DNA of 64,000 nucleotides, from positions 1 through 64,000 of IMG/VR virus record IMGVR_UViG_2881966637_000004; one strand, written 5' to 3'. Made by a program: the position numbers and the translations under genes. This DNA comes from a virus. Lineage: Duplodnaviria; Caudoviricetes. Shown one piece after another: positions 1,494 to 62,986 of this stretch (positions are counted from its first letter, which is position 1; each line of letters opens with the position of its first letter). The notes under the pieces are model-generated. The model saw nothing but the letters and a program-made list of their open reading frames with translations. It made no database searches and had not been told where the DNA came from.

Positions 1494-2038
1494 GGTTTGG
1501 TAATTGTTTCGAGTGATTGAACGAACTTATCCAGGATGGTATGCACTTTGCACACTACCTCGTAGGGTGGTGCCGGGCGGTCGTTATACTGGTAGGTCTG
1601 CCACTGCCCCCATTCGTAGGGGCTCAGCTGGTCATGCAGCAGGGTCTTGACCGACATCTCGGGCCGGTCCAGAAAGTGGCGCAGCTCATCGGCGTAGGCT
1701 ACCGTATCGCTGGGTTTGCCCAGAGCGCGGAACTCGGCGACGATGCCAGCAAGAAAGGCCAGCAGCGTGTGGCGCGTCTGGCCGTCGAGGATGTACTTCT
1801 TGTATTTGTCGGGCTTCTTATAGCCGTTGACCACGTTATTGAGCAGGGTCGGGTAGCGCAGGTTCTCTCCCAGAACCTTGAGCTTGAGCTGTCTACTGGC
1901 AAGCAGCAGCAGCAGGGGGTCGGTATCGGTTGCTTGCATAGGGTGTCGGCTGACCACCGGGGAACAGTTGTCGGTTTGGTTTCTGTTCCCCGGTGAGGGA
2001 GATAGCGCGGTCAGGTGGTAGCGTTTGCGAGTTGCCAT
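1490..2038 (-). CDS. Hypothetical phage protein
   Basis: Member of the leftward operon. Start reassigned to ATG at 2038, just after the stop of the upstream gene. Confidence 0.65.
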   Translation of the reverse strand: MATRKRYHLTALSPSPGNRNQTDNCSPVVSRHPMQATDTDPLLLLLASRQLKLKVLGENLRYPTLLNNVVNGYKKPDKYKKYILDGQTRHTLLAFLAGIVAEFRALGKPSDTVAYADELRHFLDRPEMSVKTLLHDQLSPYEWGQWQTYQYNDRPAPPYEVVCKVHTILDKFVQSLETITKP

Positions 2039-2045
2039 AGGTTGA

Positions 2046-2714
2046 CTATGTCCACTGGTTTGACTGGCCTTCCAGAATACCCATCTCAATACAAATCTGA
2101 CTGATTGCCGAGTCGAGCAAGATAGCCTGGCCCGTTGTCGTGCGGCCCCACAGGTAGACACTGCCGCCATCAAGGACGGGATAGCCGGCAGCTTTTAGCT
2201 TGCGATACAGCCAGCCGGAGACGGCCCACCACTCGTAAACCTCGTACTCTTCGCCGGCCTCCATGTTGACCTCGTCGGTCGCGTCCAGGATGGTGATGCT
2301 GCCCCAGCTTTTAATGCCGAACACCTCACCCTTGAGGTCGAAATAATACTCGGCTACGGCTTCGCCATCCCGAATGTCAACGCCCTCGTCAGAGAGGAAA
2401 GCAGCCTCTTCGTTGGTTATCTCAAGGATGGTATCGCCGTCCTCGCCGTCCTCGTTAATGCGGTCGAAGTGCGCCTTGAACTCACCGCGCTCATCAAGAT
2501 CAATGGTATAGCGAAATTGATTATCGGCTACCGTCTCGGGACCGATCAAGTTTTCGATGTCGTCGTAAGAGAAGGGCGCGTCGCCATCTTCGTGGCTCTT
2601 TTTGAGGATGTAGTCAACCATTGTATTCACATTGCAGAATACTTCACGGCCAACGAATTTACTTTTGATGTCTTGGTTGATGATACTGTTAACGTCACCT
2701 GTGTATGCAGACAT
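2046..2714 (-). CDS. Conserved hypothetical phage protein (EWWAVSxWL...WGRTTTGQAI family)
   Basis: Acidic protein with the C-terminal motif YEWWAVSGWLYRKLK...WGRTTTGQAILLD, recalled from other phages. Start reassigned to MSAYTG. Confidence 0.75.
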   Translation of the reverse strand: MSAYTGDVNSIINQDIKSKFVGREVFCNVNTMVDYILKKSHEDGDAPFSYDDIENLIGPETVADNQFRYTIDLDERGEFKAHFDRINEDGEDGDTILEITNEEAAFLSDEGVDIRDGEAVAEYYFDLKGEVFGIKSWGSITILDATDEVNMEAGEEYEVYEWWAVSGWLYRKLKAAGYPVLDGGSVYLWGRTTTGQAILLDSAISQICIEMGILEGQSNQWT

Positions 2715-2760
2715 GATAGTTGACGCCGGTTGACCTATGCCCCGGCAGGTTTGGGTTATA

Positions 2761-3003
2761 CTAGTTGTCTTTTCTGGTGAGCGAGATGTATTGACGGCCC
2801 TCGTTATATGCCATGTAGTACTTGCCCACATGGTATATGTCGTCTTCGGTGCCGTTACCGAGCGTGTCGGACGTTTCGTACTCGTCATGCACATCGAAGG
2901 TTTCGATGAGAATGGGCAGCAGTTTGGCGTTGCCGATGGCATTGCGGATGTTGATAAGCACCTGGGCTTTTTCGCCCTGAAAGAAAAAGATTTGACTAAA
3001 CAT
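2761..3003 (-). CDS. Hypothetical protein, 80 aa
   Basis: ORF fills the gap in the operon, downstream of a promoter-less AT-rich leader. Confidence 0.55.
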   Translation of the reverse strand: MFSQIFFFQGEKAQVLINIRNAIGNAKLLPILIETFDVHDEYETSDTLGNGTEDDIYHVGKYYMAYNEGRQYISLTRKDN

Positions 3004-3075
3004 AGTGGTGGTTGATTAAGACGGTCCCGCTCCGGCCCGTCCGGGGAGCCGGTACCGGCCGTAGCGGTTGACGGA

Positions 3076-3711
3076 TTAAATCATGGTGCCATCGGCCTCA
3101 AACTCGTAGTTATTGGCTTCGCAGGCTTCGATAAAGGCTTCCATACTGTTGGCATGTTCAAGGTCGGCAGCGCAGTCTTTCGCCCACTCCTCAAAGCAGG
3201 TGTCAAGCAGGTCTTCCAATGTGACAGACGGGTCGGGCTTCTTCATGTAGGCATAGATGGGTTCAAGCAGGGAATCGTCGATGCAATAGCCCGTCAGGAC
3301 GCCCCCCGTTTCCAAGGTGATGCGCGACCGGCGTTCTACGCGGCCAACGCCCGGCGTCAGGGTGTTGGTCTTACGGTTGAACGATTTGGAATACCAGCGG
3401 CCTTTGTAGATGTCGCCGCGCAGGTTATTCCAGAGCCAGGCGGCGAGTCGTGGACCGGACAGGTGGGCCACATCGTCAACATCGTGGTGCCATTCATCAT
3501 GGAACCCGTATCGTACCTCTCCCCCATTTTCGTCGTACTCCCAGTGTTTGATCTTAATGGGAAAGAGTTTGGCAAAGGCTTCGAGGGACTCTTTGTTTTC
3601 ACTATGCCAACCGTAGTTGTCGCCGTCTTTGATATAGTCCATGTGAGCTTGCTCTCTAGCCTCTTCGCTCAACTCATTGACGGTAAATACCGATACTTCG
3701 ATGGTACGCAT
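3076..3711 (-). CDS. Acidic early phage/plasmid protein (xxFxxxELSEEARE...YEFxxDG family)
   Basis: N-terminal MRTIEVSVFTVNELSEEAREQA and C-terminal CEANNYEFEADG match a widespread uncharacterised mobile-element family. Confidence 0.7.
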   Translation of the reverse strand: MRTIEVSVFTVNELSEEAREQAHMDYIKDGDNYGWHSENKESLEAFAKLFPIKIKHWEYDENGGEVRYGFHDEWHHDVDDVAHLSGPRLAAWLWNNLRGDIYKGRWYSKSFNRKTNTLTPGVGRVERRSRITLETGGVLTGYCIDDSLLEPIYAYMKKPDPSVTLEDLLDTCFEEWAKDCAADLEHANSMEAFIEACEANNYEFEADGTMI

Positions 3712-3856
3712 GACTGTAGGGGTTACTGGTGAAGAAATGGGTAGACGTGAATCATAAACTGACCGCCGATCAGAAACAGCCATGCTAAGCAGAAGGCTAA
3801 GATGATCAAGACGGTCAGGGCGTTGAGCCAGGTAAACTTTCGCTTTCGGAGTGTGC

Positions 3857-4072
3857 TCATACGTTTCGGTATCTGGCTACGGTCTGGATCAGTTCACAGG
3901 CACCGCCGAAGAGCCTGACCTTATCGGCTGCTATCGGGGAGTCGATTTTGTTTTTGACCGCCCAGACTACGGATGCGGCTTCGGAGTGGGTCATCTTGCC
4001 GATGAACATGGCCTGACGGATGAGGTTTGGGTAGCGTTGCGCTACTGCGTGGAACTTGCTCGTCGTGATCAT
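3857..4072 (-). CDS. Hypothetical protein, 71 aa
   Basis: ORF in the operon orientation, preceded by the tandem motif at 4079-4094. Confidence 0.55.
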   Translation of the reverse strand: MITTSKFHAVAQRYPNLIRQAMFIGKMTHSEAASVVWAVKNKIDSPIAADKVRLFGGACELIQTVARYRNV

Positions 4073-4092
4073 TATAGGGTTGATTTAAGTTG

Positions 4093-4120
4093 ATGCCGGA
4101 GCATACGTATGCTCCGGCAT
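4093..4120. repeat. Perfect 28-bp palindrome
   Basis: ATGCCGGAGCATACGTATGCTCCGGCAT equals its own reverse complement. Intergenic. Confidence 0.95.
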
Positions 4121-4124
4121 GTGA

Positions 4125-4379
4125 CTAGTTGTGTTGAACTGCAAACAGGTCTGCTGGTTGGTTAAGCAGGGCGAGAGCGGTTTCGTGCAGGTTGTCAATA
4201 GACTCCCCGAGTTGCTGCTGCTGCTCGAAGAGTTCATTGATGTAGTCGGCATTGGTGCGGTTCTGTCTCATCAGGTCGATGAGGTGGTCGCGGTAGTGGC
4301 TCATGGCGGCCAGTATCATTTCAGCTTCGCTGTACTGCTTTTTACCACGGAAGGCGGAGATATTGATAGACAGGGTCAT
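4125..4379 (-). CDS. Hypothetical protein, 84 aa (helical)
   Basis: ATGA overlap with the upstream gene at 4376-4379. Confidence 0.65.
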   Translation of the reverse strand: MTLSINISAFRGKKQYSEAEMILAAMSHYRDHLIDLMRQNRTNADYINELFEQQQQLGESIDNLHETALALLNQPADLFAVQHN

Positions 4380-4888
4380 GGCTTGGGTTTGGTCAGGATT
4401 TGGTTATACATTTCATCAAGTACCGGCTCGGGATACAGGCCGAGTTTGCCCCATGTAGCATCTTCTACGTACATGAGTTTATAGTCGCCGGCAACTTTGG
4501 TTCTGCCTGTGGCGATCTTGCCGAGTTCTTTGACTTTGTCTAACCAATCGTGCTTGCCTACCATTTCCAGGTATTCACGCATGGTATAGCGTATTTCATG
4601 GCCGGGCCGTCGAAGCGGGACGCTCTGTGGCGTTGCCTTTGATGTGCGGTCCAGCTCCGTCCGGTGCGCCGAATCGGCCAACGCGGTTTTCCGGATTAGC
4701 TTTGATAGCTCAAGGCGTTCCTGTTTGGAGATTGAGCCAAAGTCGTCGGACTCGGACGCCAGAAGGAACAGTTTGAGCAGCGCGTTGCCGGCTGGGGTGT
4801 TCGGCATGGATGCCGATGGCTCAAAAGCGGTGGTGTTCGCTTTTGGGGGTTGGAAACCTGCTGGTTTCTGGGTAGGTTTGTTTAGCAT
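4376..4888 (-). CDS. Antirepressor-like protein
   Basis: The C-terminus YTMREYL...ELGKIAT...EDATWGKLGLYPEPVLDEMY resembles the small C-terminal domain of KilA-N/BRO/AntA antirepressors (...LG..A......DPRFG.V..YP..VL). Confidence 0.55.
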   Translation of the reverse strand: MLNKPTQKPAGFQPPKANTTAFEPSASMPNTPAGNALLKLFLLASESDDFGSISKQERLELSKLIRKTALADSAHRTELDRTSKATPQSVPLRRPGHEIRYTMREYLEMVGKHDWLDKVKELGKIATGRTKVAGDYKLMYVEDATWGKLGLYPEPVLDEMYNQILTKPKP

Positions 4889-4906
4889 AGTATTTTATGC
4901 TGTTTT

Positions 4907-4946
4907 GCCTCGGCGACTGGTCTCACGCAGTTGTCGGGGCTTTTTT
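4907..4946 (+). terminator. Intrinsic terminator on the + strand (antisense to the early operon)
   Basis: GCCTCGGCGACTG-8 nt-CAGTTGTCGGGGC followed by TTTTTT. The three G-U pairs form only in + strand RNA. Confidence 0.7.
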
Positions 4947-5024
4947 ATGACCGTATAGTAAATTCTATGGGTATAGGCTGGCCGCTGGGTGATTTTTGGT
5001 TCCTGCTATCAACCGTATCCTGCA

Positions 5025-5447
5025 ATGCATGACCTTGCCTCCGTCGCTAAGATTGTTTTCCAATCCGCTGCTTCTCTTTTGTTGTTGGTTCTGGCTTTCT
5101 GGGTGATTGATTTTATATTCTTTGAGGTTTTAGTGGCTGGTTTTCTATATGTGGCTGCGTATAACACGTTGCTGGCTTTCGCTACAGCGGTGCTTTTTTA
5201 CCGGCTCTTGTGGCGTTACTACGTCCGCGCATCTGAGATGGCGTTTACGTATGCCTTGTCCGGCTTTACCTATGGGCCGTTACTATCCGGCGTCGGTGTA
5301 TGGGGACTTTTATTCAACCTGTTCTATATGGTGCACCGCATCTGGACGATGCAGGATAGTTATGACACATGGATAGTGTTGTACTCAGTCCTTTTCAGTG
5401 TGGCCGCTGGCTTACTGACCGTCTCCATGATTTCCGATCCGGAATAG
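5025..5447 (+). CDS. Multi-pass membrane protein (moron-like)
   Basis: About four hydrophobic segments, lower GC, opposite strand to its neighbours. Confidence 0.7.
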   Translation: MHDLASVAKIVFQSAASLLLLVLAFWVIDFIFFEVLVAGFLYVAAYNTLLAFATAVLFYRLLWRYYVRASEMAFTYALSGFTYGPLLSGVGVWGLLFNLFYMVHRIWTMQDSYDTWIVLYSVLFSVAAGLLTVSMISDPE

Positions 5448-5465
5448 CATTGAGCGTGGACAGAA

Positions 5466-5810
5466 CTATGGTTTGGTCGTAGCAAAGGCACCGTAATTGA
5501 TATGGTCAATCAGGGCGCATTTGGTGGGCAGGTCGAGGTCGTCAACGTAGATCAGGTCGTTGTTTATTTCTGCGGCAACCCATTCCTCTCCGTCAAAGAA
5601 TATACGCACGATGGGTTGGGCATTGACTCGCATCCCGTTATAGAGTATATCGTCCGGCGAGTCTGGCAGGACCACACCCTCGCTATCTTCCTTGTACTGG
5701 TGATACCACCATTTGCTTTTATCTAATGTCCCAAGTGATTTCTCAAGCATCTCATTGGTGACGGCTTCGCAAGCCTTGTAGGCTTGCAGTATTTCCTGTG
5801 TGTTGGTCAT
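5466..5810 (-). CDS. Hypothetical protein, 114 aa
   Basis: ATGA overlap with 5807-6064. Confidence 0.65.
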   Translation of the reverse strand: MTNTQEILQAYKACEAVTNEMLEKSLGTLDKSKWWYHQYKEDSEGVVLPDSPDDILYNGMRVNAQPIVRIFFDGEEWVAAEINNDLIYVDDLDLPTKCALIDHINYGAFATTKP

Positions 5811-6064
5811 GGCTCTGGAAAGTAAATGGGTTCGTCGTCAATGGGGTGCTGATCGACGGATACGGGTTCTATTACGGTAGCGTGCCAGTACATCCCGTTT
5901 TCGAGTGGGATATAGATAATGTCGCCTTCATTGAAGGCATGGGCGTTGGGCCACCGGACGACTTCGGTTTGTCCGTGGTGCCACACTTTAAGGGCGTTGG
6001 GACGTTGATACACGGCCACACCGAGCCCAATCATGGACAGGGTGATAAGGATGGCTTTTTTCAT
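5807..6064 (-). CDS. Small exported/membrane-anchored protein
   Basis: Signal-like N-terminus MKKAILITLSMIGLGVAVY. Confidence 0.65.
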   Translation of the reverse strand: MKKAILITLSMIGLGVAVYQRPNALKVWHHGQTEVVRWPNAHAFNEGDIIYIPLENGMYWHATVIEPVSVDQHPIDDEPIYFPEP

Positions 6065-6066
6065 GG

Positions 6067-6267
6067 CTAATCAAGGGTTGATAGGGTTCTGTCAGAGATT
6101 AACTCGGTTACGTGGATGGACGAAACCAGGGTGTGTCCCGTCTCAATGGCGGCCTTATTTTCTTCGGTATCCAGTACGCCCAGTATGTTTCGGGCTATTT
6201 GCAGTCGATAGCCGTTGATGTCGCCGTCAAAGACGATGCAGAGTTTGATTGTGATTTCGGTTTTCAT
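6067..6267 (-). CDS. Hypothetical protein, 66 aa
   Basis: Tightly packed in the operon. Confidence 0.6.
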   Translation of the reverse strand: MKTEITIKLCIVFDGDINGYRLQIARNILGVLDTEENKAAIETGHTLVSSIHVTELISDRTLSTLD

Positions 6268-6271
6268 GGGG

Positions 6272-6538
6272 TTACTCTTGAAAGCGTAGATTCCATTCGA
6301 GCAGGCACATACCGTAGAGGTCTACCCGGCGGCTCTGGCACAGCTCAAACGCCTGTTCCATCAGGGCGTCGAGCCGGCCGGCCATCTCGGGCGTATAGAA
6401 GGGCTGGTTTTCCCTCACGGTGTCCTTAAAGGAATCGTCGGGGTGAAAACAAACACGGTCGATGTCGTATAAGTGTACGATCATCAGGTGTACGTCGGTC
6501 AGGGTGTTGATACTGGCCGGCAGGCAGGGCTTATTCAT
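6272..6538 (-). CDS. Hypothetical protein (FHPDD motif)
   Basis: The VCFHPDDSF...LMEQAFELC pattern is recalled from Bacteroidota mobile elements. ATGA overlap. Confidence 0.65.
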   Translation of the reverse strand: MNKPCLPASINTLTDVHLMIVHLYDIDRVCFHPDDSFKDTVRENQPFYTPEMAGRLDALMEQAFELCQSRRVDLYGMCLLEWNLRFQE

Positions 6539-6642
6539 TGGCTGAGCAGGATAGCGGCCAGCAGGGCCAGCGCAATCAGGGTGGTGGCGATCCGCAGCAC
6601 CAGCTCTGACTGCTTTTTGAGCTTATGCAGTTCCTTTGACAT
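6535..6642 (-). CDS. 35-aa membrane peptide (not in the ORF track)
   Basis: MSKELHKLKKQSELVLRIATTLIALALLAAILLSQ. TAATG overlap upstream and ATGA overlap downstream. Confidence 0.65.
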   Translation of the reverse strand: MSKELHKLKKQSELVLRIATTLIALALLAAILLSQ

Positions 6643-6926
6643 TAGTTGACCCCATTGAGTTTGTCATTGTCTCTCTCTTCATTGAAGCTGTAGAGGGCCA
6701 TTTCTTTGACTTCGGTAAACGAAGCACCCTGACGCCACAAAAAGTGCATCAGATCGGTGAGCAGGTCTGTGCCTGCCTGTACGGGTTGCTCATCGGACTC
6801 TTCATAATGTTCGTCCAGGATTGCGCGGATTTTCTCAACGCGCTCATCTACGGATAGCATGGCTATAGATGGTTTTTGGTTGTGTAGGTATCCTACTACG
6901 ACCCCGAAAGGTCGTTTCGCTCTCAC
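6642..6926 (-). CDS. Hypothetical protein
   Basis: Acidic small protein (TDLLTDLMHF). The true start may be MLSVDER. Confidence 0.6.
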   Translation of the reverse strand: MRAKRPFGVVVGYLHNQKPSIAMLSVDERVEKIRAILDEHYEESDEQPVQAGTDLLTDLMHFLWRQGASFTEVKEMALYSFNEERDNDKLNGVN

Positions 6927-6962
6927 TAGAGCTCATCAGGCAGGCTATTTGACAAAGGTTGA

Positions 6963-7223
6963 CTACTCCCATATGAGAAATAGCTCACCGTTGTTATAGT
7001 ATTTTGTGAACTCCTCAAACTCAACCGGGTCTTTAACCTCGTCTTTATACTGTTGGTATTCGTGTTCAACTTCATCCGTTATTTTAAAAGTCCTGAGTAT
7101 CCCGTCATTTAGCTCTCTGGATTTTTCTTCAATTCTCATTTGGCCGTTGACTGCATCGTCAACAGTATCGTACTCGAAAGTTTCTTCACCATATTCAGCC
7201 GAAGTCATTGTTAGAATCACCAT
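6963..7223 (-). CDS. Acidic hypothetical protein, 86 aa
   Basis: Flanked by identical 17-bp TATTTGACAAAGGTTGA copies at 6946-6962 and 7262-7278. Confidence 0.65.
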   Translation of the reverse strand: MVILTMTSAEYGEETFEYDTVDDAVNGQMRIEEKSRELNDGILRTFKITDEVEHEYQQYKDEVKDPVEFEEFTKYYNNGELFLIWE

Positions 7224-7282
7224 AAACTTGCCCGTTATGCCGATAGCGCAGCGTTAATGGTTATTTGACAAAGGTTGATGGT

Positions 7283-7822
7283 CTACTTTGCTACTGGTGT
7301 CAGGCCGGCGATTTTGAGGATAGATTCAGCAGGAACGCGACCAGCTGCCAGCTCGGTGCGAACCAAAGACATGGCTTCTGTTTTGGTCATTTTCTTTTCC
7401 CGAACGGGTTTGGCGGGCTTTTCATTTTTGGCCCGATACGCTACAAGGCCGGCTACTTCACCGGCTTTTTCACGGACTACTTTACGGGCGTCAGCCAGTT
7501 CGTTGTATGCCTGGTCAATAGCTGCGAGTGTAGCAGCCGCATTATACGCGCCCTCAGGCACGAGCCGGGTAATGGCATGGCTTTTCTCATCTGCCAGGAA
7601 TGATTTGGTAGCCGCTTTAAAGGCCAGTTCAGACGAGACTTTCGGCTCAGACTTTAGGGCCAACAAAAGTTGCAGATACTTGGGCAGACTGGCATTGGCC
7701 TTGATCCAGCGTCCGGCGTCTTTTGGCCGTGAATAGCCGTTAGACAAGGTTACGCCCATTGCGCCATTCACTTTGATTTCTACGGCTTCGCCGTTTTGAC
7801 GTACTCCATTGAAAAATTCCAT
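7283..7822 (-). CDS. Basic hypothetical protein (first gene of the leftward operon)
   Basis: Start reassigned to MEFFNG at 7822. Ala/Lys-rich. Confidence 0.7.
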   Translation of the reverse strand: MEFFNGVRQNGEAVEIKVNGAMGVTLSNGYSRPKDAGRWIKANASLPKYLQLLLALKSEPKVSSELAFKAATKSFLADEKSHAITRLVPEGAYNAAATLAAIDQAYNELADARKVVREKAGEVAGLVAYRAKNEKPAKPVREKKMTKTEAMSLVRTELAAGRVPAESILKIAGLTPVAK

Positions 7823-8190
7823 GATCGTATAATTTAAAGGTTGATAAAAGTTGAAAACAAAAGTCCCAACGGGACAATGGCGACCAGTCGGATAACGAAT
7901 CCGAATAACGGCGGGCCGTTGCTGGTCTGGTAAAAAGTATTGTTGTTTTTTATTCCGGCTAACTCCGACTTGCCTATCGTTCATCTACACCGTTCAGAGC
8001 CATTTCGCACCAATATGATTGGTCAGACTCCTACCTATCAGTACTACCGCTATAGTGCGGGTTCCGTTGACTGTAAGCCGGCTGACGAGTATGTCACACC
8101 CGTTCCGTTTGTTTCGGTCTATCAGGGCCGATACTGTCAGACCGTTGGTGGTCAGGTCCGTTCTGTTGTCGTTGCCGATTGAGAACATGA

Positions 8191-8221
8191 CAAAGATACG
8201 AGTAATATTTTAAAAAACAAC
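8191..8221 (-). promoter_or_regulatory. Bacteroidota sigma-A-type promoter driving the leftward early operon
   Basis: On the minus strand, TTG (-33) then 19 nt then TATCTTTG (-7; + strand CAAAGATA at 8191-8198). Confidence 0.6.
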
Positions 8222-8836
8222 TACTCGCTTAAAAATAGTTGACAGCATGTCGGGACACTACTTCGCCGAACATAGGAACCGCATACGTGTGTGTACGCAT
8301 CTACGCGGGCGCGTGTGTTGAGGTGAGAAAGGAAAAGGAATTGATTATCAGTCACTTACATAACACATGATAAACTATTCGTCCACTATACCGGACTAAA
8401 ACTGTACCCAACGTAGACAAACGGGTAATTGTATTATTCCGATATGTAAGCAGATTGGTACGGGTAGAAAATTGGGGAAATAGATAGCGTATATACCGAC
8501 ACGTATAGACAGAATACTGATATGTATAGGGGTATGGGGTACAAAAAGGCTGGGCCAGAAATCACAGGTAGCCGGGGGTGGGTTGCCCAGGGAAACGCAG
8601 GGGTCGAAGATTGGGGGGCTATACTCACAATTACGATATGCGACATCAGCACACCTTCCGCCCCCTGTCTACCTCTGAGAGCAGCAGCAGGTGGTGTCAA
8701 ATCAAACAAATAAACCCGTCCTAATAAGTACTAAGAATAGATCGCCACAACTCTCTGATTACTAGCACTAATTCATATTCTTAATCAATACGTTTTTAAT
8801 TCTATCTGAATATTTAAAGGATATTTTTGGGTTGAC

Positions 8837-8868
8837 TTTGGTTGACTCATGGATATTATCTAATTTTG
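8837..8868 (+). promoter_or_regulatory. Canonical Bacteroidota promoter for repL, overlapped by the tandem motif
   Basis: TTTG (8837-8840), 20 nt, TAATTTTG (8861-8868). GTTGAC-tttg-GTTGAC at 8831-8846 covers the -33 element. Confidence 0.75.
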
Positions 8869-10551: not shown

Positions 10552-10729
10552 CGTTCGACCCACCGTGTATGGACGCTATCTGGTCTACCGGGAGAAGTGC
10601 GACAAGATTCATTTTGAAACATGGAACCAGACCGGCTGGGCCTATAACGACAACACCATTACCGATTGGGCCTTCGTCCGAAGTCCACGATCAATGAAGT
10701 CAGACAACTTAAATCAACCAGCACAATGA
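10517..10729 (+). CDS. DUF551-like small phage protein
   Basis: WNPYPDVRP...YLVY...W...ITDWAFVRSP pattern. Confidence 0.6.
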   Translation: METVLIWNPYPDVRPTVYGRYLVYREKCDKIHFETWNQTGWAYNDNTITDWAFVRSPRSMKSDNLNQPAQ

Positions 10730-12737: not shown

Positions 12738-12768
12738 TTGGTTTACATTAGTTGACTTTCTATCTTTG
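12738..12768 (+). promoter_or_regulatory. Promoter for the tail/ejection operon, with the tandem motif in the spacer
   Basis: TTG (12738-12740), 20 nt, TATCTTTG (12761-12768). GTTTAC-atta-GTTGAC at 12741-12756 fills the spacer. Confidence 0.7.
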
Positions 12769-12820
12769 ATCGGTTATGAATACCTTGATCCAAAGATAAT
12801 TAGTTGCTGCTGGTAATACG

Positions 12821-22370: not shown

Positions 22371-22398
22371 AAGTCAACTAAAATCAACCTAACTTTCG
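22367..22398 (+). promoter_or_regulatory. Promoter-like site for the cargo genes, with the tandem motif in the spacer
   Basis: TTG (22367-22369), 20 nt, TAACTTTCG (22390-22398). GTCAAC-taaa-ATCAAC at 22373-22388. Confidence 0.55.
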
Positions 22399-22419
22399 GC
22401 TGATAACTCCACACATACA

Positions 22420-25764: not shown

Positions 25765-25785
25765 TCCACCTACTGATTCACACCG

Positions 25786-35024: not shown

Positions 35025-35086
35025 GGGTAGTATTCATAGCGGAGTGGCTTTTGGTGTGCGTTGCATCACTAAACGCCCCTTTACGT

Positions 35087-35458: not shown

Positions 35459-35465
35459 GAGTCTT

Positions 35466-35879: not shown

Positions 35880-35902
35880 ACGCTAGTACGTCTTTTCTGT
35901 AT

Positions 35903-36184: not shown

Positions 36185-36290
36185 TGTTTTATTTTGTTTT
36201 GGTTGTCAACTAATATCAATTTAAATCAACTATCTACGCAACCATAATGATCGACTGGATAGTTCCCCGTTTGGCATTTGTTGAAAATCT

Positions 36291-36339
36291 TTTGACAGGG
36301 GGGCTGTCAACATAGCCGGGGCGCGGGCATCTAGTTTTG
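36291..36339 (+). promoter_or_regulatory. Putative late promoter: palindrome plus -7 box
   Basis: TTGACAG-GGGGG-CTGTCAA (36292-36310), then TAGTTTTG (36332-36339). Same arrangement as at 52929-52978. Confidence 0.7.
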
Positions 36340-41892: not shown

Positions 41893-41910
41893 TCAACTTT
41901 TGTCAACGCC

Positions 41911-50245: not shown

Positions 50246-50277
50246 TTGTCAACTTTTGTCAACTGTTGTATCTTTCG
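50246..50277 (+). promoter_or_regulatory. Promoter-like site for the packaging operon, with the tandem motif in the spacer
   Basis: TTG (50246-50248), 20 nt, TATCTTTCG (50269-50277). GTCAAC-tttt-GTCAAC at 50248-50263. Confidence 0.6.
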
Positions 50278-50899: not shown

Positions 50900-52908
50900 T
50901 GAAGTCGCGTCGTCTCGAACGGGAAAAACAAAAGGCTGGCCTGCCCAGCAAATACGACAGGATACGCCCGGTCGAGCGCGACTACCTGACCCATCCTGAC
51001 AGTGTGCAGGTCAAGTATCGGCCCGTCCTGCAGGCTCCCATTCCCGACCCGCCCGAGGAAGGTGAGGTAGGCACCGAGCGGGCGATCTGGTGGCAGACGC
51101 AGCTCTACCGCTGCAAATACGGATGGACCTACGAAGCCGAGGGCGAGACGCCGAAGTACTTCACCCCGGCCTACTACTTCTACCTCAACTTCGTCAAGGT
51201 TGAGATCAAGGACAAGAAGCGGGGCCGGAAGCGGATGGCACCCTTGTATTCGGACTCCGACCACCGCATCTTCAACTGGATATACAGCCTCGAAGCCCAG
51301 GCGTATTCGATGGCCAGAGACGGCATCGTCACCAAAGGGCGACGCAAACACTGGTCCTACATCACCCACTGCGGGGTGTTTCTGCACGACTTCTGCTTCG
51401 ATACGGCCAGCCACGTAGCGATTGGCTACGACAGCAAGATAAGCCGGGAAGAAGGGCAGCGCATTTTTCAGGGGGCGTACAACTCGCTGCCCAGCTATTT
51501 TAAGCACGACACCCTCTACACGGAAAAAGAGGGCGAGCTGTCGAATGGCGAAGCGGTCTACGACGCCGACGGTCAGTTGACGGGCTACGTGGAGCGTAAC
51601 ACCATTATCTTTCGGGAGCTGGATAAAAACCCCGGCGGCCTGCGGGGTAGAAACCTCAAGCGGGTACTCCTGGATGAGATCGGCAAGTACCGCAACGCGA
51701 TGGCCTGCGTGATCGCTACCGAAGATGCGCTGCGCGAAGGCCTCGACAAGCACGGCTCCCTGCTGGCGGGTGGCACGTCGGATGCCATCAGTAACGAATC
51801 GAAAGATTATAAGACGCTCTGGAAACAGGCCGACGTGCGGGGCTGGGGTCGGCTGTTTGTCAGCGCGGGCTGGGTAGCCCCCCCCTACTTTGATTATTTT
51901 ACGGGCGTCTCCGACATCAAGGCGGCCGAAGCCGAGTATCGGGCCGAGCGGGATGCGCTGCTCAACGTCGGCGACGTGATGGGCTACTATGGCAAAATGC
52001 AGGAGAACCCCCTCACGCCCGAGGAGTGCTTCAACCCGCCCGTGCGCAGCCGCTACCCAGCCCACATCATCCAGGAGCAGGTGTTCTTTCTGCGCCAGTG
52101 GCCCACCGAACACTGGATCATCCGGGGTAGGCTGGACTGGGTCAACGACGTACTGGGTAATCACATCCGGGTGGACTTCACCGAAGACCCCAATGGGTCG
52201 TGGCACTTTTACCGCGACGGCTTTCCCCGCCGTGACCTGCCCGGCCTGGACATTCTCGGCGTCGATGACGTGTACCTGGACAAAGAGCGGGAAGAGGTGA
52301 GCGACGACGACTCGCTGCAGAGTATCGTCATCAAACGGCGCAAGGTGGATAAGCAGTTTGAGAACGATCTGTTCGTGGCCTACTACGAAGACCGCCACGA
52401 CCGGCACGTCTTCGCCCGCGAACTCCACAAAGCCCTCTGGTTCACCAACGGCAAAGCCATCATCGAAAACAACGACAAGTTTCTGCCCGACTTTCTGCAG
52501 CGCAACAACCTGCAGGATCAGGTGATCTGGGTAAACGGCAAGATGGGTATCCGCAACGACGAGCGGACGATCCCCCACCAGCAGATGCTGGCCCAGGACT
52601 GGTTCGACGCGGGCGGTGCCAGCCGCTGCTACTTCGAGCGCATCCTGGACAGCTTCAAAAACTTCCGGTCCACCAACGACGACGTGGCTTCGGCCGCTCA
52701 CCTGGCCCTGCACGCCGAAGACATCATCAAGGACCACCCCATCCGCACGGAAGCCGACGCCAAAGGCTTCGGCCTCAAGATCGGCACGGGCTACTCGCCC
52801 CTGCTGGCCAGGATGACGGGTCTGCAGGACACCGGCCTGAACGGCGAATCGGGTTCCCGGCTCGACGGCATACGCCGGATGCGTGAGCAGATGCGCCGGG
52901 TGGCGTAG
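50899..52908 (+). CDS. terL: Terminase large subunit (crAss-like type)
   Basis: YYFYLNFVKV, degenerate Walker A KGRRKHWSY, Walker B VLLDEIGK, GGT coupling motif, nuclease ILGVDD / IIENN / NDDVASA. Confidence 0.92.
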   Translation: MKSRRLEREKQKAGLPSKYDRIRPVERDYLTHPDSVQVKYRPVLQAPIPDPPEEGEVGTERAIWWQTQLYRCKYGWTYEAEGETPKYFTPAYYFYLNFVKVEIKDKKRGRKRMAPLYSDSDHRIFNWIYSLEAQAYSMARDGIVTKGRRKHWSYITHCGVFLHDFCFDTASHVAIGYDSKISREEGQRIFQGAYNSLPSYFKHDTLYTEKEGELSNGEAVYDADGQLTGYVERNTIIFRELDKNPGGLRGRNLKRVLLDEIGKYRNAMACVIATEDALREGLDKHGSLLAGGTSDAISNESKDYKTLWKQADVRGWGRLFVSAGWVAPPYFDYFTGVSDIKAAEAEYRAERDALLNVGDVMGYYGKMQENPLTPEECFNPPVRSRYPAHIIQEQVFFLRQWPTEHWIIRGRLDWVNDVLGNHIRVDFTEDPNGSWHFYRDGFPRRDLPGLDILGVDDVYLDKEREEVSDDDSLQSIVIKRRKVDKQFENDLFVAYYEDRHDRHVFARELHKALWFTNGKAIIENNDKFLPDFLQRNNLQDQVIWVNGKMGIRNDERTIPHQQMLAQDWFDAGGASRCYFERILDSFKNFRSTNDDVASAAHLALHAEDIIKDHPIRTEADAKGFGLKIGTGYSPLLARMTGLQDTGLNGESGSRLDGIRRMREQMRRVA

Positions 52909-52928
52909 TCAACCCTTGTCAACGCACA

Positions 52929-52978
52929 TTTGACAGGGGGGCTGTCAACATTCGCGGGGCGGGTGCCGACTACTTTTG
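52929..52978 (+). promoter_or_regulatory. Putative late promoter for the scaffold-capsid operon
   Basis: The 22-mer TTTGACAGGGGGGCTGTCAACA is identical to 36291-36312, followed by TACTTTTG (52971-52978). Preceded by the tandem motif at 52908-52923. Confidence 0.72.
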
Positions 52979-54120: not shown

Positions 54121-55647
54121 ATGGCAAAGATTATCAAGCAACAGTTCGGGGCCGGCACACTGGACCTGCCCTTCCTGGGACTGGCCCTCGCCCGGCAGCC
54201 GCAGATGCTGCAGGAGTTTATCGTCAGCCGGTTTGCTTCCAACAACCTGGCTCTGACGACGCTCTTCCAGGGTATCTATCCCGAGTCGCAGGGCGAAGAG
54301 GTGCTGGGTAGCAACCAGGTGAGCTGGGAGGTCTACAACCTACCCGAAAAGCCCATCTACATCGACGGCATCGTGGGTACACCGAAGGTTGGCAACGACA
54401 TTGAGGTAGACCTGACCGAAGGCTGGCTCCGCGCCGGGGCCAAGCTGCGGCTCGAAGACGGCCGGACCCTGTTACACCTGCAGACCAACGGCTCTCCCCG
54501 CGCCAACGGTATCGTCCGCTACCGGGGTCGGATCGTGGGCAACAACACGGAACACGAAGCTCCGTCGTGGCTTTTCGAGCGCAACCGGGCGGCCAACTAC
54601 CAGACGGCCAACTACGAGGAGGGCTCCCACATGGGCCACCCGATGTACTACGGGACGGGCGACAAGTACAAGCAGGCGATGTCTACTCACCGCCACGACG
54701 CCGACCTGACGGGCGACGCCCTCTCGGAAGTAACGATCTTCGAGACGACCCGCGAGATACCAAACTCGGGTGGACGCACGAAAACCTACCGGGGCTGGCT
54801 GCCCGAGTTCCTGCGGAGCCCAACAACCTCGCTGCTCGACTTCCACCAGCGGCACTGTGAACTGGATCACATTTACGGTCAGAGCAACATCAACTTTGAG
54901 ACGGGCGAGATTTTCAACATCAACGAAACCAACGGCTCGAAGAAGGTGATGATGGGTGATGGGCTTATTGCTCAGCTCGACGGCGCGTACACCAAATGCT
55001 ACGACCCGAAGGATTCGCTATCGTCTATCCGTAACAAGGTGAAGAATATCATCACCTATATGTCGGCCCACTGGAACAACCAGGACTTCCTGGAAATGGT
55101 CGTGATGGGTGGCATCGGGGCGGACGCCGTCTTCCAGGACGTGATGGCCGAGTTACAGGCCAGCTCGGGCGTTCAGGTGTGGCGCACGCCAGACTCAGAA
55201 GGCAAAGTCGTTGTCGGCCTTCGCTTTTCGGAGTGGATCATTGGCGGCATGGGCAAGATCAAGTTCGTGCGTAACAACAGCATGGGCGACATCACCGCCA
55301 AATCGCGCATGATCAACTACAACGGGGTTGCTCTCAACGCCGAGTCGTTCGATATGTACTTCATGCCGATTGGGATGATGTCGAACGGCAAGACCAACAT
55401 CCGCTTCTTCTCGAAGGGTAAGACGGTCAACGGCCAGCAGATCAACCGTTCGCTGGTGTTCAGCCACATCCAGGGCGTGACCGGCTACCTGTCCAACAAT
55501 CTGTCGAAAGCCTCGGCGGATGGGCTGTCGGAGTATGCTAACCTGGTGGGCACCTCGCGGGATGCCGAGCAGTTCCATCTGCTCAGCCAGAAGATGCTGA
55601 TCGTTACCAACCCAACCGAGTTCGCCCGGTTGCTGGTGTACCGATAG
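54121..55647 (+). CDS. Major capsid protein (crAss-like HK97 fold), 508 aa
   Basis: Size; ANYEEGS..G; YGQSN; VMMGDGLIAQL; VVMGGIG; GKIKFVRN; position between scaffold and head-completion genes. Confidence 0.85.
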   Translation: MAKIIKQQFGAGTLDLPFLGLALARQPQMLQEFIVSRFASNNLALTTLFQGIYPESQGEEVLGSNQVSWEVYNLPEKPIYIDGIVGTPKVGNDIEVDLTEGWLRAGAKLRLEDGRTLLHLQTNGSPRANGIVRYRGRIVGNNTEHEAPSWLFERNRAANYQTANYEEGSHMGHPMYYGTGDKYKQAMSTHRHDADLTGDALSEVTIFETTREIPNSGGRTKTYRGWLPEFLRSPTTSLLDFHQRHCELDHIYGQSNINFETGEIFNINETNGSKKVMMGDGLIAQLDGAYTKCYDPKDSLSSIRNKVKNIITYMSAHWNNQDFLEMVVMGGIGADAVFQDVMAELQASSGVQVWRTPDSEGKVVVGLRFSEWIIGGMGKIKFVRNNSMGDITAKSRMINYNGVALNAESFDMYFMPIGMMSNGKTNIRFFSKGKTVNGQQINRSLVFSHIQGVTGYLSNNLSKASADGLSEYANLVGTSRDAEQFHLLSQKMLIVTNPTEFARLLVYR

Positions 55648-55681
55648 TCAACTATAGTCAACGCAAGTTGACGACGCATAG

Positions 55682-58347: not shown

Positions 58348-58351
58348 GAGT

Positions 58352-58440: not shown

Positions 58441-58454
58441 CTCCCCCCTTCGCC

Positions 58455-61092: not shown

Positions 61093-61093
61093 A

Positions 61094-61414: not shown

Positions 61415-61823
61415 TGGTTGGTTGGTTTACTGTGATTGTTTCAAAATAAAAGACGATAGGCTTTGGTGTTTCTTCGACAAGGCCGTACCGCTTTGCCATC
61501 CTGTAGTTTGAGCTATAGCTGTTAACCCGCTTGATCTGATCTTGGATTTCAGATCGAAAGAACTCAATAGGGTTGGTACTCTTCCAGTTGTTGCAGACCC
61601 TACAGGCGGGCATCAGGTTGTCAATGTGGTTAACATCGTCCGTAGTCAGGTGTAGTAAGTAGTCTGGCACCTGCCACTTGTTGACGATATGGGTCAGGAA
61701 GTTTCGCTGGGAGATAATGTGATCCACCTGAAACCCGTTTTCCTTAATGGACTCTCCGCAGTACCCACACCGTCCGCCACACTTTTGATACACCTTCTGT
61801 CGCAGGGCTTTACCGATTGCCAT
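61407..61823 (-). CDS. HNH endonuclease
   Basis: RQKVYQKCGGRCGYCG...QVDHII...NLMPACRVCNNWK. Confidence 0.92.
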   Translation of the reverse strand: MAIGKALRQKVYQKCGGRCGYCGESIKENGFQVDHIISQRNFLTHIVNKWQVPDYLLHLTTDDVNHIDNLMPACRVCNNWKSTNPIEFFRSEIQDQIKRVNSYSSNYRMAKRYGLVEETPKPIVFYFETITVNQPTND

Positions 61824-62073
61824 AGTCTTTGTAGTGGTTCTTGTTTCTAGCCCGGTGCCGGTGTCTGATGCGCAGTCTGGCATAGCGAACCAGTGTGTGA
61901 TACAGGCCGGCGTATGAGATGATACGGGTGACTGGCCCGTCAAGTGACCACAGCAGAAGCCGGGCTATGGCCGACAGGCCCGCGTAGAGTATAGCCAGAC
62001 AGACAACCCCGGCTATGGTGCATAGAACGATGAAGAGCATGAAGCCTTCGAGTCCGTTAAATTCAAGGTGCAT
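61810..62073 (-). CDS. Small membrane protein
   Basis: Long hydrophobic segment. Confidence 0.55.
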   Translation of the reverse strand: MHLEFNGLEGFMLFIVLCTIAGVVCLAILYAGLSAIARLLLWSLDGPVTRIISYAGLYHTLVRYARLRIRHRHRARNKNHYKDYGNR

Positions 62074-62090
62074 GGGATGGGTGGTTAAAA

Positions 62091-62124
62091 CGACGGGCCG
62101 GCAAAAAAGATGACCGGCCCGTCG
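62091..62124 (-). terminator. Intrinsic terminator after the lipoprotein gene
   Basis: CGACGGGCCGG-12 nt-CCGGCCCGTCG, followed by TTTT on the minus strand. Confidence 0.75.
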
Positions 62125-62145
62125 CAGGTTGATTACAGTTGACGA

Positions 62146-62841
62146 TTAATACCAACCGCCCGGCGGTGTGCCTGGTTCAAAGTAGGCAACCATGATGCTG
62201 TTCGTTGGCCCGTTTTCGTGTACCCAGTACATTGTCGGCTGATTGTTGGGGCCATAAAAAATATAGACCGTAATACCGTACAACCCACAGGCCGGATCAT
62301 GGTTGTTGTTGGTCCGGTAGGTGAGGTTCGGAGAGCCGGGGATGGTGTTATAGATATGGCTGATGGGGCTTTGCTGACTGGGCAGTACCATGCGCCGAAG
62401 TCCGGAGTCGCCACACACCGGGTCAATATAGCTCCCCGGCTCAGAGCACAACGTCATGTGCGAAATGTAGTACCGGCCGTCTACGGGCGGCTGGATGCTC
62501 AAATAGACAAAGTCGAACATGCAGCTTAACGGAAACATCGACTTATACTGGGCCTTGTTTTTGGCGTATCCGGGGGTGTAGATATATTCCTCGGTAGCAT
62601 ACCAATCAACAAACCGCCAGCTGCCAACGATTTCGGCAGGGAGTTCCTGGGCGGGACGGGCCGACTTGTTGGTAGTTGTCTTGGCACTAAGGTCAACCTT
62701 CACGGCGCGACCATCGGCGACGGCCTGCAACAGTTCCGACTTAGTTTTAGGTCGCTTGTAATCGGGCTTAGACTTGGGTTCGTTGGCTTTTTCGCAGGAG
62801 AAAGCAAACAGGAGAGCGAGAATAAGAATGAGTTGTTTCAC
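62146..62841 (-). CDS. Lipoprotein (signal peptide II), moron-like
   Basis: MKQLILILALLFAFSC lipobox. Lipocalin-like start IVGSWRFVDW. Lower GC. Confidence 0.75.
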   Translation of the reverse strand: MKQLILILALLFAFSCEKANEPKSKPDYKRPKTKSELLQAVADGRAVKVDLSAKTTTNKSARPAQELPAEIVGSWRFVDWYATEEYIYTPGYAKNKAQYKSMFPLSCMFDFVYLSIQPPVDGRYYISHMTLCSEPGSYIDPVCGDSGLRRMVLPSQQSPISHIYNTIPGSPNLTYRTNNNHDPACGLYGITVYIFYGPNNQPTMYWVHENGPTNSIMVAYFEPGTPPGGWY

Positions 62842-62986
62842 GATTTGGTTGTTTGATTGTTTGGTTTGATTTGAAATAGACACTTGACAAAAGTTGATAC
62901 GTGCGGATGGGGTGGTCCTCGCTGGTATGGCATGTTGGCGATTGATTAAACTGGTTACTTTCTTTGCGGCCGAAACCCTTCCGGCC

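Follow-up and report, generated by a model that had tools for sequence, protein, structure and literature searches.

A transcription-oriented tandem hexamer array in a Spirosoma prophage: predicted docking sites for a phage-encoded regulator

Short direct repeats recur at the gene junctions of a phage DNA stretch of 64,000 nucleotides (the window), and the question raised by this locus is what reads them and to what effect. A Bacteroidota, crAss-like setting had been proposed for this DNA in a first-pass annotation, and our analysis agrees at the sequence level: the window belongs to an 81-kb temperate prophage (window coordinates -135 to 80568) with a crAss-like virion module, residing in the 7.37-Mb genome of a Spirosoma bacterium (G000), of which 7.29 Mb remain outside the prophage. 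The predicted prophage promoters are of the Bacteroidota type, with -33 and -7 elements; gene leaders are A/C-rich and devoid of SD sequences, and two evident host-type promoters are near-leaderless. Most likely, the approximately 30 oriented words described below serve as genome-wide docking sites for a DNA-binding regulator of the phage's own.

Abundance and specificity of the tandem word

The repeated element is a 16-bp word, RTCAAC-N4-RTCAAC, whose hexamers recur at exactly 10 bp around an A/T-rich spacer; the prophage has 30 copies of it. All 18 places originally listed in the window carry the motif, and the array is larger than had been noted, with 12 further sites past the right edge of the window (64033-79867; L009). 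The sites inside the window are as follows.

2031 to 2046, - strand: tandem site (21.8 bits), first G overlapped by the TAG of the upstream ORF; follows the last gene of the leftward block, has no downstream same-strand gene and faces the convergent gene 1517-1996
2719 to 2734, - strand: tandem site with G/C spacer, ATG 4 nt downstream (15.3 bits, the weakest of all)
4079 to 4094, - strand: tandem site with two ATCAAC units, immediately preceded by a perfect palindromic hairpin of 24 bp; the ATG follows after 6 nt
6635 to 6650, - strand: tandem site with the TAA stop of the upstream ORF in its spacer
6948 to 6963, - strand: tandem site, first G overlapped by a TAG stop
7264 to 7279, - strand: tandem site beginning 3 nt past the upstream stop
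7840 to 7855, - strand: tandem site within a gap of 170 bp, 19 nt ahead of an ATG
8831 to 8846, - strand: tandem site in a divergent control region
10703 to 10718, + strand: tandem site GACAAC/ATCAAC in a short rightward block, ATG 7 nt downstream
12741 to 12756, - strand: tandem site in the leader of a leftward 140-aa gene, ATG 5 nt downstream
22373 to 22388, + strand: tandem site beginning 2 nt past the stop of the crAss muzzle gene; the last site ahead of a 13.8-kb site-free stretch
36205 to 36230, + strand: three-unit site between the leftward Xis-like gene and the rightward structural operon
41892 to 41907, + strand: perfect site (27.1 bits) filling the 18 bp that separate the 641-aa gene from the 856-aa gene, with TAG overlap and ATG 3 nt downstream
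50248 to 50263, + strand: perfect site 5 nt past the upstream stop, followed 5 nt later by a near-consensus -7 box, TATCTTTC
52908 to 52923, + strand: site overlapping the TerL stop, with the palindrome TTGACAGGGGGGCTGTCAA and a -7 box at 52971 downstream
55647 to 55662, + strand: site overlapping the MCP stop, followed by a third, inverted hexamer at 10-bp spacing
62128 to 62143, - strand: site 2 nt past the upstream stop, followed by a strong hairpin and T-run
62883 to 62898, - strand: site near the 5' end of a 280-aa ORF, the true start of which probably lies downstream of the site

The 16-mer is asymmetric and without dyad symmetry, bases outside it show no conservation across sites, and exactly two hexamer units are found in 27 of the 30 sites. 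The array clearly exceeds a composition-matched null: the strict pattern RTCAAYN4RTCAAY yields 12 matches in the window against 0.06 expected from dinucleotide shuffles (at most one per shuffle), and the relaxed pattern (<=2 mismatches) yields 30 against 4.4 expected. An extra match at 56526, inside a gene and with a G/C-rich spacer, is probably due to chance. Of the 11 exact GTCAACN4GTCAAC copies in the 7.37-Mb genome, 10 lie within C21:388669-465832, and a weight matrix at >=18 bits gives 29 matches in the prophage as opposed to 3 in the 7.29 Mb outside it (the matrix was built from the sites themselves and is thus circular for the inside count and valid for the outside count). Overall, the density of the word is approximately 750-fold lower in the rest of the genome than in the prophage. 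Two objections raised along with the first observation, a motif shared with host 5' UTRs and a GTYRAC methylation target, do not hold: the motif is absent from host 5' UTRs, and GTYRAC methylation does not account for it because GTTAAC occurs at the expected level and only GTCGAC is avoided.

No array of this kind is seen in the S. oryzae prophage, a relative with 44-46% MCP identity, and the array is therefore not lineage-wide. Unrelated mobile elements of other Spirosomaceae carry iteron-like clusters of the same hexamer, likewise phased at 10 bp, next to DUF3987 genes and as 4-unit arrays; no protein family is common to the phage and these elements.

Position of the sites relative to genes and promoters

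On a hand-curated gene map with a coding share of 93.4% of the prophage, no more than 10 of the 16 bases are coding in 24-25 of the 30 sites (binomial p about 2e-23), in keeping with the intergenic placement first described. The sense orientation also stands, as site strand tracks every gene-strand switch (30/30, and 26/26 without the divergent regions). The stop overlaps noted after the TerL, MCP, 641-aa and 2046-start genes were confirmed, with TAG running directly into TCAAC. Six sites have the upstream stop at +1, another six have it within 5 nt and four inside the spacer, and in gaps of at least 40 bp 7 of 9 sites hug it (p about 9e-4). Because the AT-rich word itself contributes TAG/TAA in two frames, the stop-hugging may in part be incidental. 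At many sites the next ATG follows 3-31 nt after the end of the word, and in 8 cases after 3-9 nt.

Several sites overlap predicted Bacteroidota-type promoters, as scored on perfect TAnnTTTG boxes. At the early leftward promoter (box at 79839), which faces a repressor-like (cI-like) gene, the site falls in the -33 region. In the 105-bp cI/cro gap the tandem site is the only repeat besides two back-to-back -7 boxes and lies 17 nt ahead of the cI-like ATG. On the + strand, site 8831 abuts the perfect box at 8822, so that the site is at +1; a second promoter, with its box at 8861 and facing a RepL-like gene, is overlapped in its -33 element and spacer. Elsewhere, a site begins 7 nt after the box at 65037, site 12741 lies 34 nt after the perfect -7 box 12791-12784, in the leader, and the three-unit site 36205 precedes the -7 box at 36332 by about 100 bp. 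Sites 79867 and 8831 overlie host-type promoters of opposite facing. This mixture of sites on predicted core promoters and sites at junctions agrees with the likeness to an operator/stoperator layout drawn in the first-pass annotation.

Candidate binders and alternative explanations

The binders initially suggested within the window were not upheld, and better candidates, a cI-like protein and a 92-aa winged helix, lie just beyond it. The genes concerned are the following.

35466 to 35879, - strand: XRE-type HTH protein, 137 aa, in a cassette common to islands in other Spirosomaceae
35903 to 36184, - strand: excisionase-family HTH_17 protein, 93 aa, adjoining the three-unit site
78947 to 79225: candidate binder, excisionase/BldC-like winged helix, 92 aa, third gene of the early leftward operon
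79900 to 80463: candidate binder, cI-like protein, 187 aa, with two XRE HTH domains, in the immunity locus at the attR end

Homologs of the 35466 XRE protein, 66-70% identical, occur at 7 other loci without boxes, RepL gave a weak sub-threshold match, and no HU/IHF-family (PF00216) gene was found in the prophage. In the cI-like protein the C-terminal domain matches HTH_3 (E=1.5e-19) and the N-terminal domain alone matches HTH_31 (5e-6, at the curated cut-off); its AF2 model consists of two 5-helix domains (pLDDT >90) and a low-confidence linker of about 20 aa. One 98% copy is its only close relative. A tenable, if tentative, reading is that this protein recognizes the sites, occludes promoters and roadblocks junctions, and so silences lytic genes in the lysogen. 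Phage specificity, intergenic co-orientation, promoter overlap, the two-domain make-up of the candidate and the Cluster A parallel discussed below argue for it, and the strict two-unit format fits a two-module reader better than an open-ended filament. Against it, boxes occur in two islands where no cI-like homolog was found, either in the whole G153 genome or among the genes called on the 11.9-kb metagenome locus L144, and boxes are absent near its best two-domain homolog (33% identical), which comes from a prophage remnant in a different genome, probably likewise of Spirosoma.

We consider it rather doubtful that the 92-aa winged helix binds the same sites head-to-tail and that the array serves lytic growth, for instance in early shut-off, as a temporal switch or through anti-repression, rather than silencing the lysogen; the two proteins could also have a common set of sites, in the manner of CI and Cro. 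Among 401 Spirosomaceae genomes this protein occurs only in G000 and G153, and a 5.8-billion-protein search added one further locus, L144. All three loci, which is all that are known, carry sense-oriented tandem boxes <=1 kb upstream (two ahead of the operon in each of the islands G153:C6 and L144), and between these islands the hexamers are kept although the flanking bases differ; such a small sample may be linked by descent. The AF2 model (pLDDT 82) predicts a long helix and then a winged helix, and its best local fold matches are BldC (6ama, rmsd 1.8 over 51 columns) and 7lwr, an HTH domain from phage DNA packaging (rmsd 2.0 over 52 columns), both at prob 0.99, together with RdfS excisionase and P2 Cox, but Foldseek E-values are all >0.01 and Pfam HTH_17 is matched at only E=0.015. 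Identical direct half-sites about one helical turn apart around an A/T-rich spacer are shared with lambda Xis, P2 Cox, Streptomyces BldC and OmpR/PhoB boxes, and head-to-tail binding of direct repeats by BldC and lambda Xis supports this reading. Xis, Cox and BldC act at one or few loci, however, and we know of no head-to-tail winged-helix binder with about 30 genome-wide, transcription-tied two-unit sites. P2 Cox forms a filament on arrays of at least six cox-boxes of mixed orientation (PMC3936717), whereas the sites here are strictly two-unit. Sites at the ends of late structural genes would also be left without a reason.

It is improbable that the word is a phage-specific promoter or activator docking site driving numerous short transcription units that include leaderless ones. 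Phage promoters usually appear as motifs that are dispersed, intergenic and sense-oriented, as in crAss-like genomes, where 137 promoter-motif matches are nearly all intergenic and sense (10.1101/2020.03.07.982082), and the 8 closely following ATGs and the near-leaderless host-type promoters are consistent with it. Yet the word is not accompanied at any constant distance by a conserved -7 box or other element, and two identical hexamers 10 bp apart are unlike the sigma-dependent promoters known. The roughly 60 scanned ORFs yielded neither a sigma factor nor an RNA polymerase, the DFDxD motif is absent from the 2545-aa protein, site 2031 has no gene to serve, and sites 79867 and 8831 sit on host-type promoters facing the opposite way.

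A similarly slim chance is given to an mRNA-level signal, GUCAAC-N4-GUCAAC at stop/start junctions, acting in SD-less re-initiation by ribosome landing or retention, or as the site of a phage RNA-binding protein or nuclease. The absolute sense orientation, the stop-hugging (7/9 in the longer gaps), the proximity to the next ATG and the A/C-rich leaders favor it. So does a likeness to the start-associated sequences (SAS) of Cluster K mycobacteriophages, asymmetric 13-bp, transcription-oriented words immediately upstream of many start codons, which to our knowledge have no known function. Unlike the word studied here, which tracks upstream stops at least as tightly and lacks an SD, SAS include the ribosome-binding site and track start codons. 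Moreover, host 16S rRNA has no GUUGAC or GUUGAU for pairing, the exact 10-bp period and A/T-rich spacer are features of a DNA face, and the stop-hugging may partly stem from the word's own TAG/TAA. Site 2031 again lacks a downstream gene, and at sites 8831, 36205 and 79867, all in promoter regions, the word precedes or spans the predicted start, so that their sense transcription is not clear.

Very unlikely is a non-regulatory role as boundary homologies, or recombinase or host-factor sites, for gene-module exchange: the phage-encoded Rad52-type annealing protein, the iteron-like clusters elsewhere and the site-flanked 13.8-kb stretch (22373 to 36205) of island-shared genes fit it, but the points where homology to the G153 island breaks off do not fall on sites, the cluster-bearing elements share no protein family with the phage, a host factor should have chromosomal sites and G000 has essentially none, and the strict tie to transcription direction is unexplained.

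Relation to known systems and proposed function

The closest parallel is offered by Cluster A phages (L5 gp71, Bxb1, the TipsytheTRex repressor). Their repressors are 183-aa monomers with two DNA-binding domains that bind 13-14-bp asymmetric sites, 20-30 per genome, transcription-oriented, some in promoters and one upstream of rep (PMC9283540, PMC6550527). Shared with the present array are the number of asymmetric sites, their orientation and location in short intergenic gaps, the few promoter sites, including an early lytic promoter and one upstream of the repressor gene, and a candidate repressor of about 185 aa with two DNA-binding domains in one chain. In contrast, the 16-bp word here is a direct repeat of one hexamer, where Cluster A sites are non-repetitive words of 13-14 bp, the candidate reader carries a pair of canonical XRE domains and has no similarity to gp71 or its Stoperator domain, and the setting is a Bacteroidota host with -33/-7 promoters, no SD and a crAss-like virion. 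A looser match is SPBRE of the Bacillus subtilis phage SPbeta, a phage-specific word of about 15 bp in many intergenic or promoter regions, predicted in silico and later confirmed by ChAP-seq and EMSA as the site of the repressor MrpR (YopR); the portions of that report consulted (PMC10516654) describe about ten bound, promoter-associated sites and do not describe junction roadblocks. MrpR has a tyrosine-recombinase fold, whereas no recombinase-fold repressor candidate was identified here, the att-adjacent integrase being the only recombinase found. The claim that no such system is known holds for Bacteroidota and crAss-like phages in the literature searched; the kind itself is known in actinobacteriophages and SPbeta.

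Returning to the cI-like reading, the 16-bp word would be a DNA site in which two hexamers follow each other head-to-tail at one helical turn, and a prophage-encoded protein with two DNA-binding modules would recognize it, most likely the 187-aa cI-like protein with its flexibly tethered XRE-type HTH domains. Binding at five or six host-type promoters, including the early leftward one facing the protein's own gene, would block access to the -33 element, the spacer or the +1 region. At gene junctions, about 20 in number, the protein would act as a polar roadblock stopping RNA polymerase and mopping up read-through, although a plain roadblock does not predict the stop-hugging in long gaps. Promoter occlusion and roadblocks together would keep the lytic genes silent in the lysogen.

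The tandem word and the prophage that carries it

The 16-bp word RTCAAC-N4-RTCAAC had been noticed in the first-pass annotation as a tandem motif recurring along the window, and every coordinate listed there indeed carries two RTCAAC-form hexamers exactly four bases apart, with GTCAAA, GGCAAC and GTAAAC as occasional variants. The strict pattern gave 12 matches in the window versus 0.06 expected from dinucleotide-preserving shuffles, and with up to two mismatches allowed there were 30 matches versus 4.4, so that the enrichment over a composition-matched null is well borne out. The window corresponds to G000:C21:385951-449950 in a genome of 7.37 Mb and 27 contigs, whose host is congeneric with Spirosoma oryzae DSM 28354. 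Ten of the 11 exact copies of GTCAACN4GTCAAC in this genome fall within 78 kb (C21:388669-465832), as do 24 of the 45 matches with at most one mismatch, and a weight matrix derived from the sites themselves found 29 matches scoring 18 bits or more within the element versus 3 in the other 7.29 Mb. Twelve more sites are located right of the window, at 64033-79867 in the same numbering, which gives 30 in total; an additional exact match at 56526, intragenic and with a G/C spacer, is treated as chance.

The site is an asymmetric direct repeat without dyad symmetry, and its 30 phage-specific copies compare with the twenty or more of a Cluster A array. The unit number is exactly two in 27 of the 30 sites, the spacer is A/T-rich (per position T/C, T/A, A/T, T/A), and the information content is at background beyond both edges of the 16-mer.

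The sites mark an 80.7-kb prophage (window -135 to 80568) with a 15-bp direct repeat, GCAGAGAGGAAGAGA, at -135 and 80554, the latter copy forming part of a tRNA-Ser(gga) gene at its 3' end. Its features include:

1-1257: tyrosine integrase with an arm-binding domain
from about 79.8 kb, leftward: lambdoid early operon

The early operon encodes, in order, a cro-like protein, a 96-aa protein, a 92-aa winged helix, an N6/N4 methylase, a Rad52-type annealing protein and Rha, followed by an HTH_36 replication initiator, DnaB, a sliding clamp, DUF1064 and HNH proteins. The virion module is crAss-like: the Crassvirus muzzle family PF25731 is represented by a 1237-aa protein (E=1.5e-214), and TerL, MCP and portal match PHROG families. 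A giant virion RNA polymerase, as in crAss-like phages, was not recognised: the 2545-aa protein has neither a Pfam match nor DFDxD, and carries no more than a DVDFD string, at residue 2216. Leaders are devoid of Shine-Dalgarno sequences.

The gene for the 2545-aa protein lies in a site-free stretch of 13.8 kb (window 22420-36184), together with those for a 533-aa protein and an XRE protein. The three genes recur in integrase-bearing islands of another Spirosomaceae genome (G153:C6 17-37 kb, loci L021 and L023-L024; identities of 97% for the 533-aa, 75% for the 2545-aa and 91% for the XRE gene) and of a metagenome locus (L144), adjoined by an ART-like gene and without phage MCP or other virion genes. 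The set may represent a mobile cassette rather than crAss cargo. The whole prophage is also short of 6-bp palindromes (563 in total versus about 1200-1280 expected), evenly along its length; 21 of the 64 are absent, among them GTCGAC, CCCGGG, CCATGG, CCGCGG, GCGCGC and CGTACG, each expected 20-35 times, and nine others occur once each. This looks like broad restriction-site avoidance, beside the phage's own N6/N4 methylase gene (L009:13255-14310, where L009 is the stretch right of the window and its positions plus 64,000 are window positions).

Relatives of the prophage were few. Single-protein scans with MCP over genomes and viral contigs returned none, and an MCP alignment query found no more than three, in S. 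oryzae DSM 28354, a Runella MAG and a distant viral contig. The sites proved not to be conserved in the related prophage of S. oryzae, which contains neither the word nor any other tandem hexamer. The exact 16-mer occurs at 78 loci in IMG/VR, mostly as lone chance matches with a few local clusters, and no relative of the prophage was among them.

The hexamer appears in other settings as well. In other Spirosomaceae (L011-L016, L019, L022), the stretches of about 360 bp of intergenic DNA that directly follow a gene for a DUF3987 protein of about 470 aa are crowded with pairs of the form GTCAAC-N4-GTCAAC, which alternate in strand and recur with a period of 99 bp; these regions resemble the origins or iterons of a family of integrative elements. 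A conserved non-coding module shared by two further loci (L032:10050-10400 in genome G219 and L033:9850-10200 in G343) consists of a tract of T-rich repeats and four GTCAAC units phased at 10 bp, followed after about 100 nt by three GTTGAC units phased at 8 bp; no flanking gene common to both was found. Even family HMMs revealed no resemblance to prophage proteins among those encoded beside the DUF3987-type clusters or the G219/G343 arrays.

Position of the sites relative to genes and promoters

On a gene map curated by hand, coding sequence occupies 93.4% of the prophage, and for 24-25 of the 30 sites no more than 10 of the 16 bases are coding (p about 2e-23), in agreement with the intergenic location originally claimed. 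A site is present in all four divergent regions and, where neighbouring genes share a strand and are 41-120 bp apart, in 9 of 12 gaps. The claimed orientation with transcription holds for all 30 sites, whose strands are minus from 2031 to 8831, plus at 10703, minus at 12741, plus from 22373 to 55647, minus from 62128 to 79526 and plus at 79867. As every change of gene strand is tracked, the polarity is tied to transcription and not to replication or packaging.

Many sites are anchored at stop codons. In six of them the upstream stop is a TAG that shares its G as the first base of the word, six further sites begin within 5 nt of the upstream stop, and four carry the stop codon within the spacer; the same closeness to the stop holds for 7 of the 9 sites in gaps of 40 bp or longer (p about 9e-4). 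This hugging may in part be a by-product, since, against a G+C-rich background, an A/T-rich word gives stops in two frames. For eight sites the next ATG is 3-9 nt further on, and for 15 it comes within 31 nt. Strong hairpins adjoin two sites, one formed by a perfect 24-bp palindrome (window 4095-4118) directly upstream of the 4079 site and the other, with a GC-rich stem and a T-run (window 62080-62125), directly downstream of the 62128 site. Inside the gene for the HTH_36 replication initiator, some 620 nt beyond its start, three hexamers form GTCAAC-N4-GTCAAT-N6-ATCAAC (window 69174-69205; L009:5174-5205), a position that recalls, by analogy, the lambda origin within gene O.

Promoter and translation start signals of Bacteroidota differ from the textbook ones, and promoters were predicted here from perfect -7 boxes (TAnnTTTG) in sense orientation alone. 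Such boxes are few in the prophage, and several adjoin sites. At the predicted box of the leftward early operon (79839), the site lies 20 nt upstream, in the -33 region, and 17 nt separate its end from the ATG of the cI-like gene, which reads rightward; in this 105-bp gap the sole repeat other than the site is two back-to-back -7 boxes. Two rightward predicted boxes, at 8822 and 8861, face the RepL-like gene, with the site at about +1 of the one and over the -33 TTTG and spacer of the other. The site begins 7 nt after the predicted box at 65037, is located within the leader at 12791, and lies 60-110 bp upstream of the predicted late promoters at 36332 and 52971. Both late promoters (-7 boxes TAGTTTTG at 36332 and TACTTTTG at 52971) lack a -33 TTTG, and a palindrome that they share, TTGACAGGGGGGCTGTCAA, about 20-40 bp upstream of the boxes (window 36291-36312 and 52929-52950) is a candidate late-activator site. 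Sites over predicted core promoter elements are a minority, and most are plain junction sites. Few sites over predicted promoters together with many junction sites resemble the operator-plus-stoperator layout of L5 and its relatives (PMC9283540, PMC6550527), in which some sites are operators in promoters, among them the early lytic one and the region ahead of the repressor gene.

Candidate readers and alternative readings of the word

The word is probably a protein-binding DNA site of some sort, and two prophage proteins were considered as its readers. The first is the 187-aa cI-like protein (79900-80463), the product of the last gene before attR, at the immunity locus. Its C-terminal XRE domain is strong (HTH_3, E=1.5e-19), and the N-terminal one, scored alone, reaches the curated cut-off (HTH_31, 27.2 bits). 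The AF2 model consists of two confident five-helix domains separated by about 20 linker residues of low confidence; as its pTM is 0.47, the mutual orientation of the domains is not fixed by the model. Two tethered HTH modules, as modelled, would fit sites made of two hexamers. BLASTP between the two domains detected no similarity. A word-indexed search for relatives returned only one, 98% identical, and a full HMMER search many multi-HTH proteins, of which the closest two-domain homolog (P0019) has no boxes in its surrounding locus.

The second candidate, the 92-aa winged helix (78947-79225), was found among 401 Spirosomaceae genomes only in G000 and G153, with a third instance at the metagenome locus L144. 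The G153 and L144 islands carry two tandem boxes upstream of the operon that holds this gene, and the hexamers are conserved between the two islands while neighbouring bases differ. No homolog of the cI-like protein is present in the G153 genome or among the genes called on L144. Local fold matches of the winged-helix model, all with Foldseek E-values above 0.01, include BldC, a phage DNA-packaging HTH domain (7lwr), the RdfS excisionase and P2 Cox. Protein P0002 shows marginal similarity to the first island genes (E=0.036). Two binders proposed at first pass have been dropped: the 137-aa XRE protein at 35466-35879, because its homologs in seven other loci come without boxes, and the HU-like protein, since no HU/IHF-family (PF00216) match was found inside the prophage.

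Dispersed, sense-oriented motifs are usually explained as phage-specific promoters, and the short distances from site to ATG agree with such a role. The surroundings of the sites, however, show no conserved element at a set distance, the roughly 60 ORFs scanned gave no sigma factor or polymerase, and the 2031 site has no gene downstream. An RNA-level junction signal would account for the stop-codon anchoring, but the exact helical period and the A/T spacer are features of duplex DNA, and several of the sites overlap or precede predicted starts of transcription. Pairing with ribosomal RNA in the manner of TURBS is ruled out, as the host 16S rRNA contains no complement of the word. Iteron-like clusters of the same phased hexamer do occur in unrelated mobile elements of other Spirosomaceae; as the chromosome is essentially devoid of sites, a host factor is an unlikely reader. 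A GTYRAC methylation target of HincII type, which had been named as a possible refutation, is excluded: the variants are not treated alike (GTCAAC plus GTTGAC 125, GTTAAC 10 with about 8 expected, and only GTCGAC missing, with 0), and it gives no account of the tandem 10-bp rule or of the strand rule. AlpA-type antitermination of P. aeruginosa, with one protein, one hexamer and one promoter, is no model for 30 tandem sites.

Relation to known repressor-site networks

The stoperator-like network suggested by the first-pass annotation stands as far as its layout is concerned, the sites being phage-specific, asymmetric, intergenic and co-oriented. The array is laid out like the operator and stoperator sites of L5 and its Cluster A relatives (PMC9283540, PMC6550527), and is more loosely similar to the SPbeta repeated element SPBRE with its master repressor MrpR (PMC10516654). 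Cluster A repressors are of the gp71 type, with an HTH plus a Stoperator domain, to which the candidate readers share no homology; against the PDB at E<=0.01, the cI-like protein matched generic XRE structures and not the repressor of TipsytheTRex. The Cluster A repressor is a monomer with two DNA-binding domains, and the present two-HTH candidate at the immunity locus is known from sequence and a model. A repressor of the SPbeta type, with a tyrosine-recombinase fold that is catalytically dead, was not identified, the sole recombinase seen being the att-adjacent integrase. Unlike either system, the array has a tandem-hexamer grammar, canonical XRE or winged-helix candidates, a Bacteroidota host and a crAss-like virion. 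It belongs to neither family, and its kinship with the Cluster A system is one of analogy, not membership.

That the array comprises the sites of a repressor roadblock is a tentative reading, to which we give somewhat less than even weight. The more specific scenario, in which a temperate crAss-like phage of Bacteroidota independently evolved stoperator-type silencing of its whole genome with a single-chain two-XRE repressor, a tandem hexamer and sites at stop codons, appears rather unlikely. In it the stop-codon placement would be deliberate, with RNA polymerase blocked exactly where the trailing ribosome departs; we know of no phage for which a roadblock coupled to translation termination has been described.

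To our knowledge, genome-wide polar arrays of repressor sites have been approached experimentally only in actinobacteriophages, as stoperators, and in SPbeta, and there was no prior knowledge of lytic-gene silencing in temperate Bacteroidota phages or temperate crAss-like relatives. The locus offers a small experimental system, with a 16-bp word of two hexamers, a fixed 4-bp A/T spacer and one direction, two candidate readers of 187 and 92 residues, and about 30 natural promoter and junction sites. If the sites are true roadblocks, the strategy would have arisen more than once, with different protein folds, and the word would provide an orthogonal, orientation-dependent transcription stop for Bacteroidota genetic tools.
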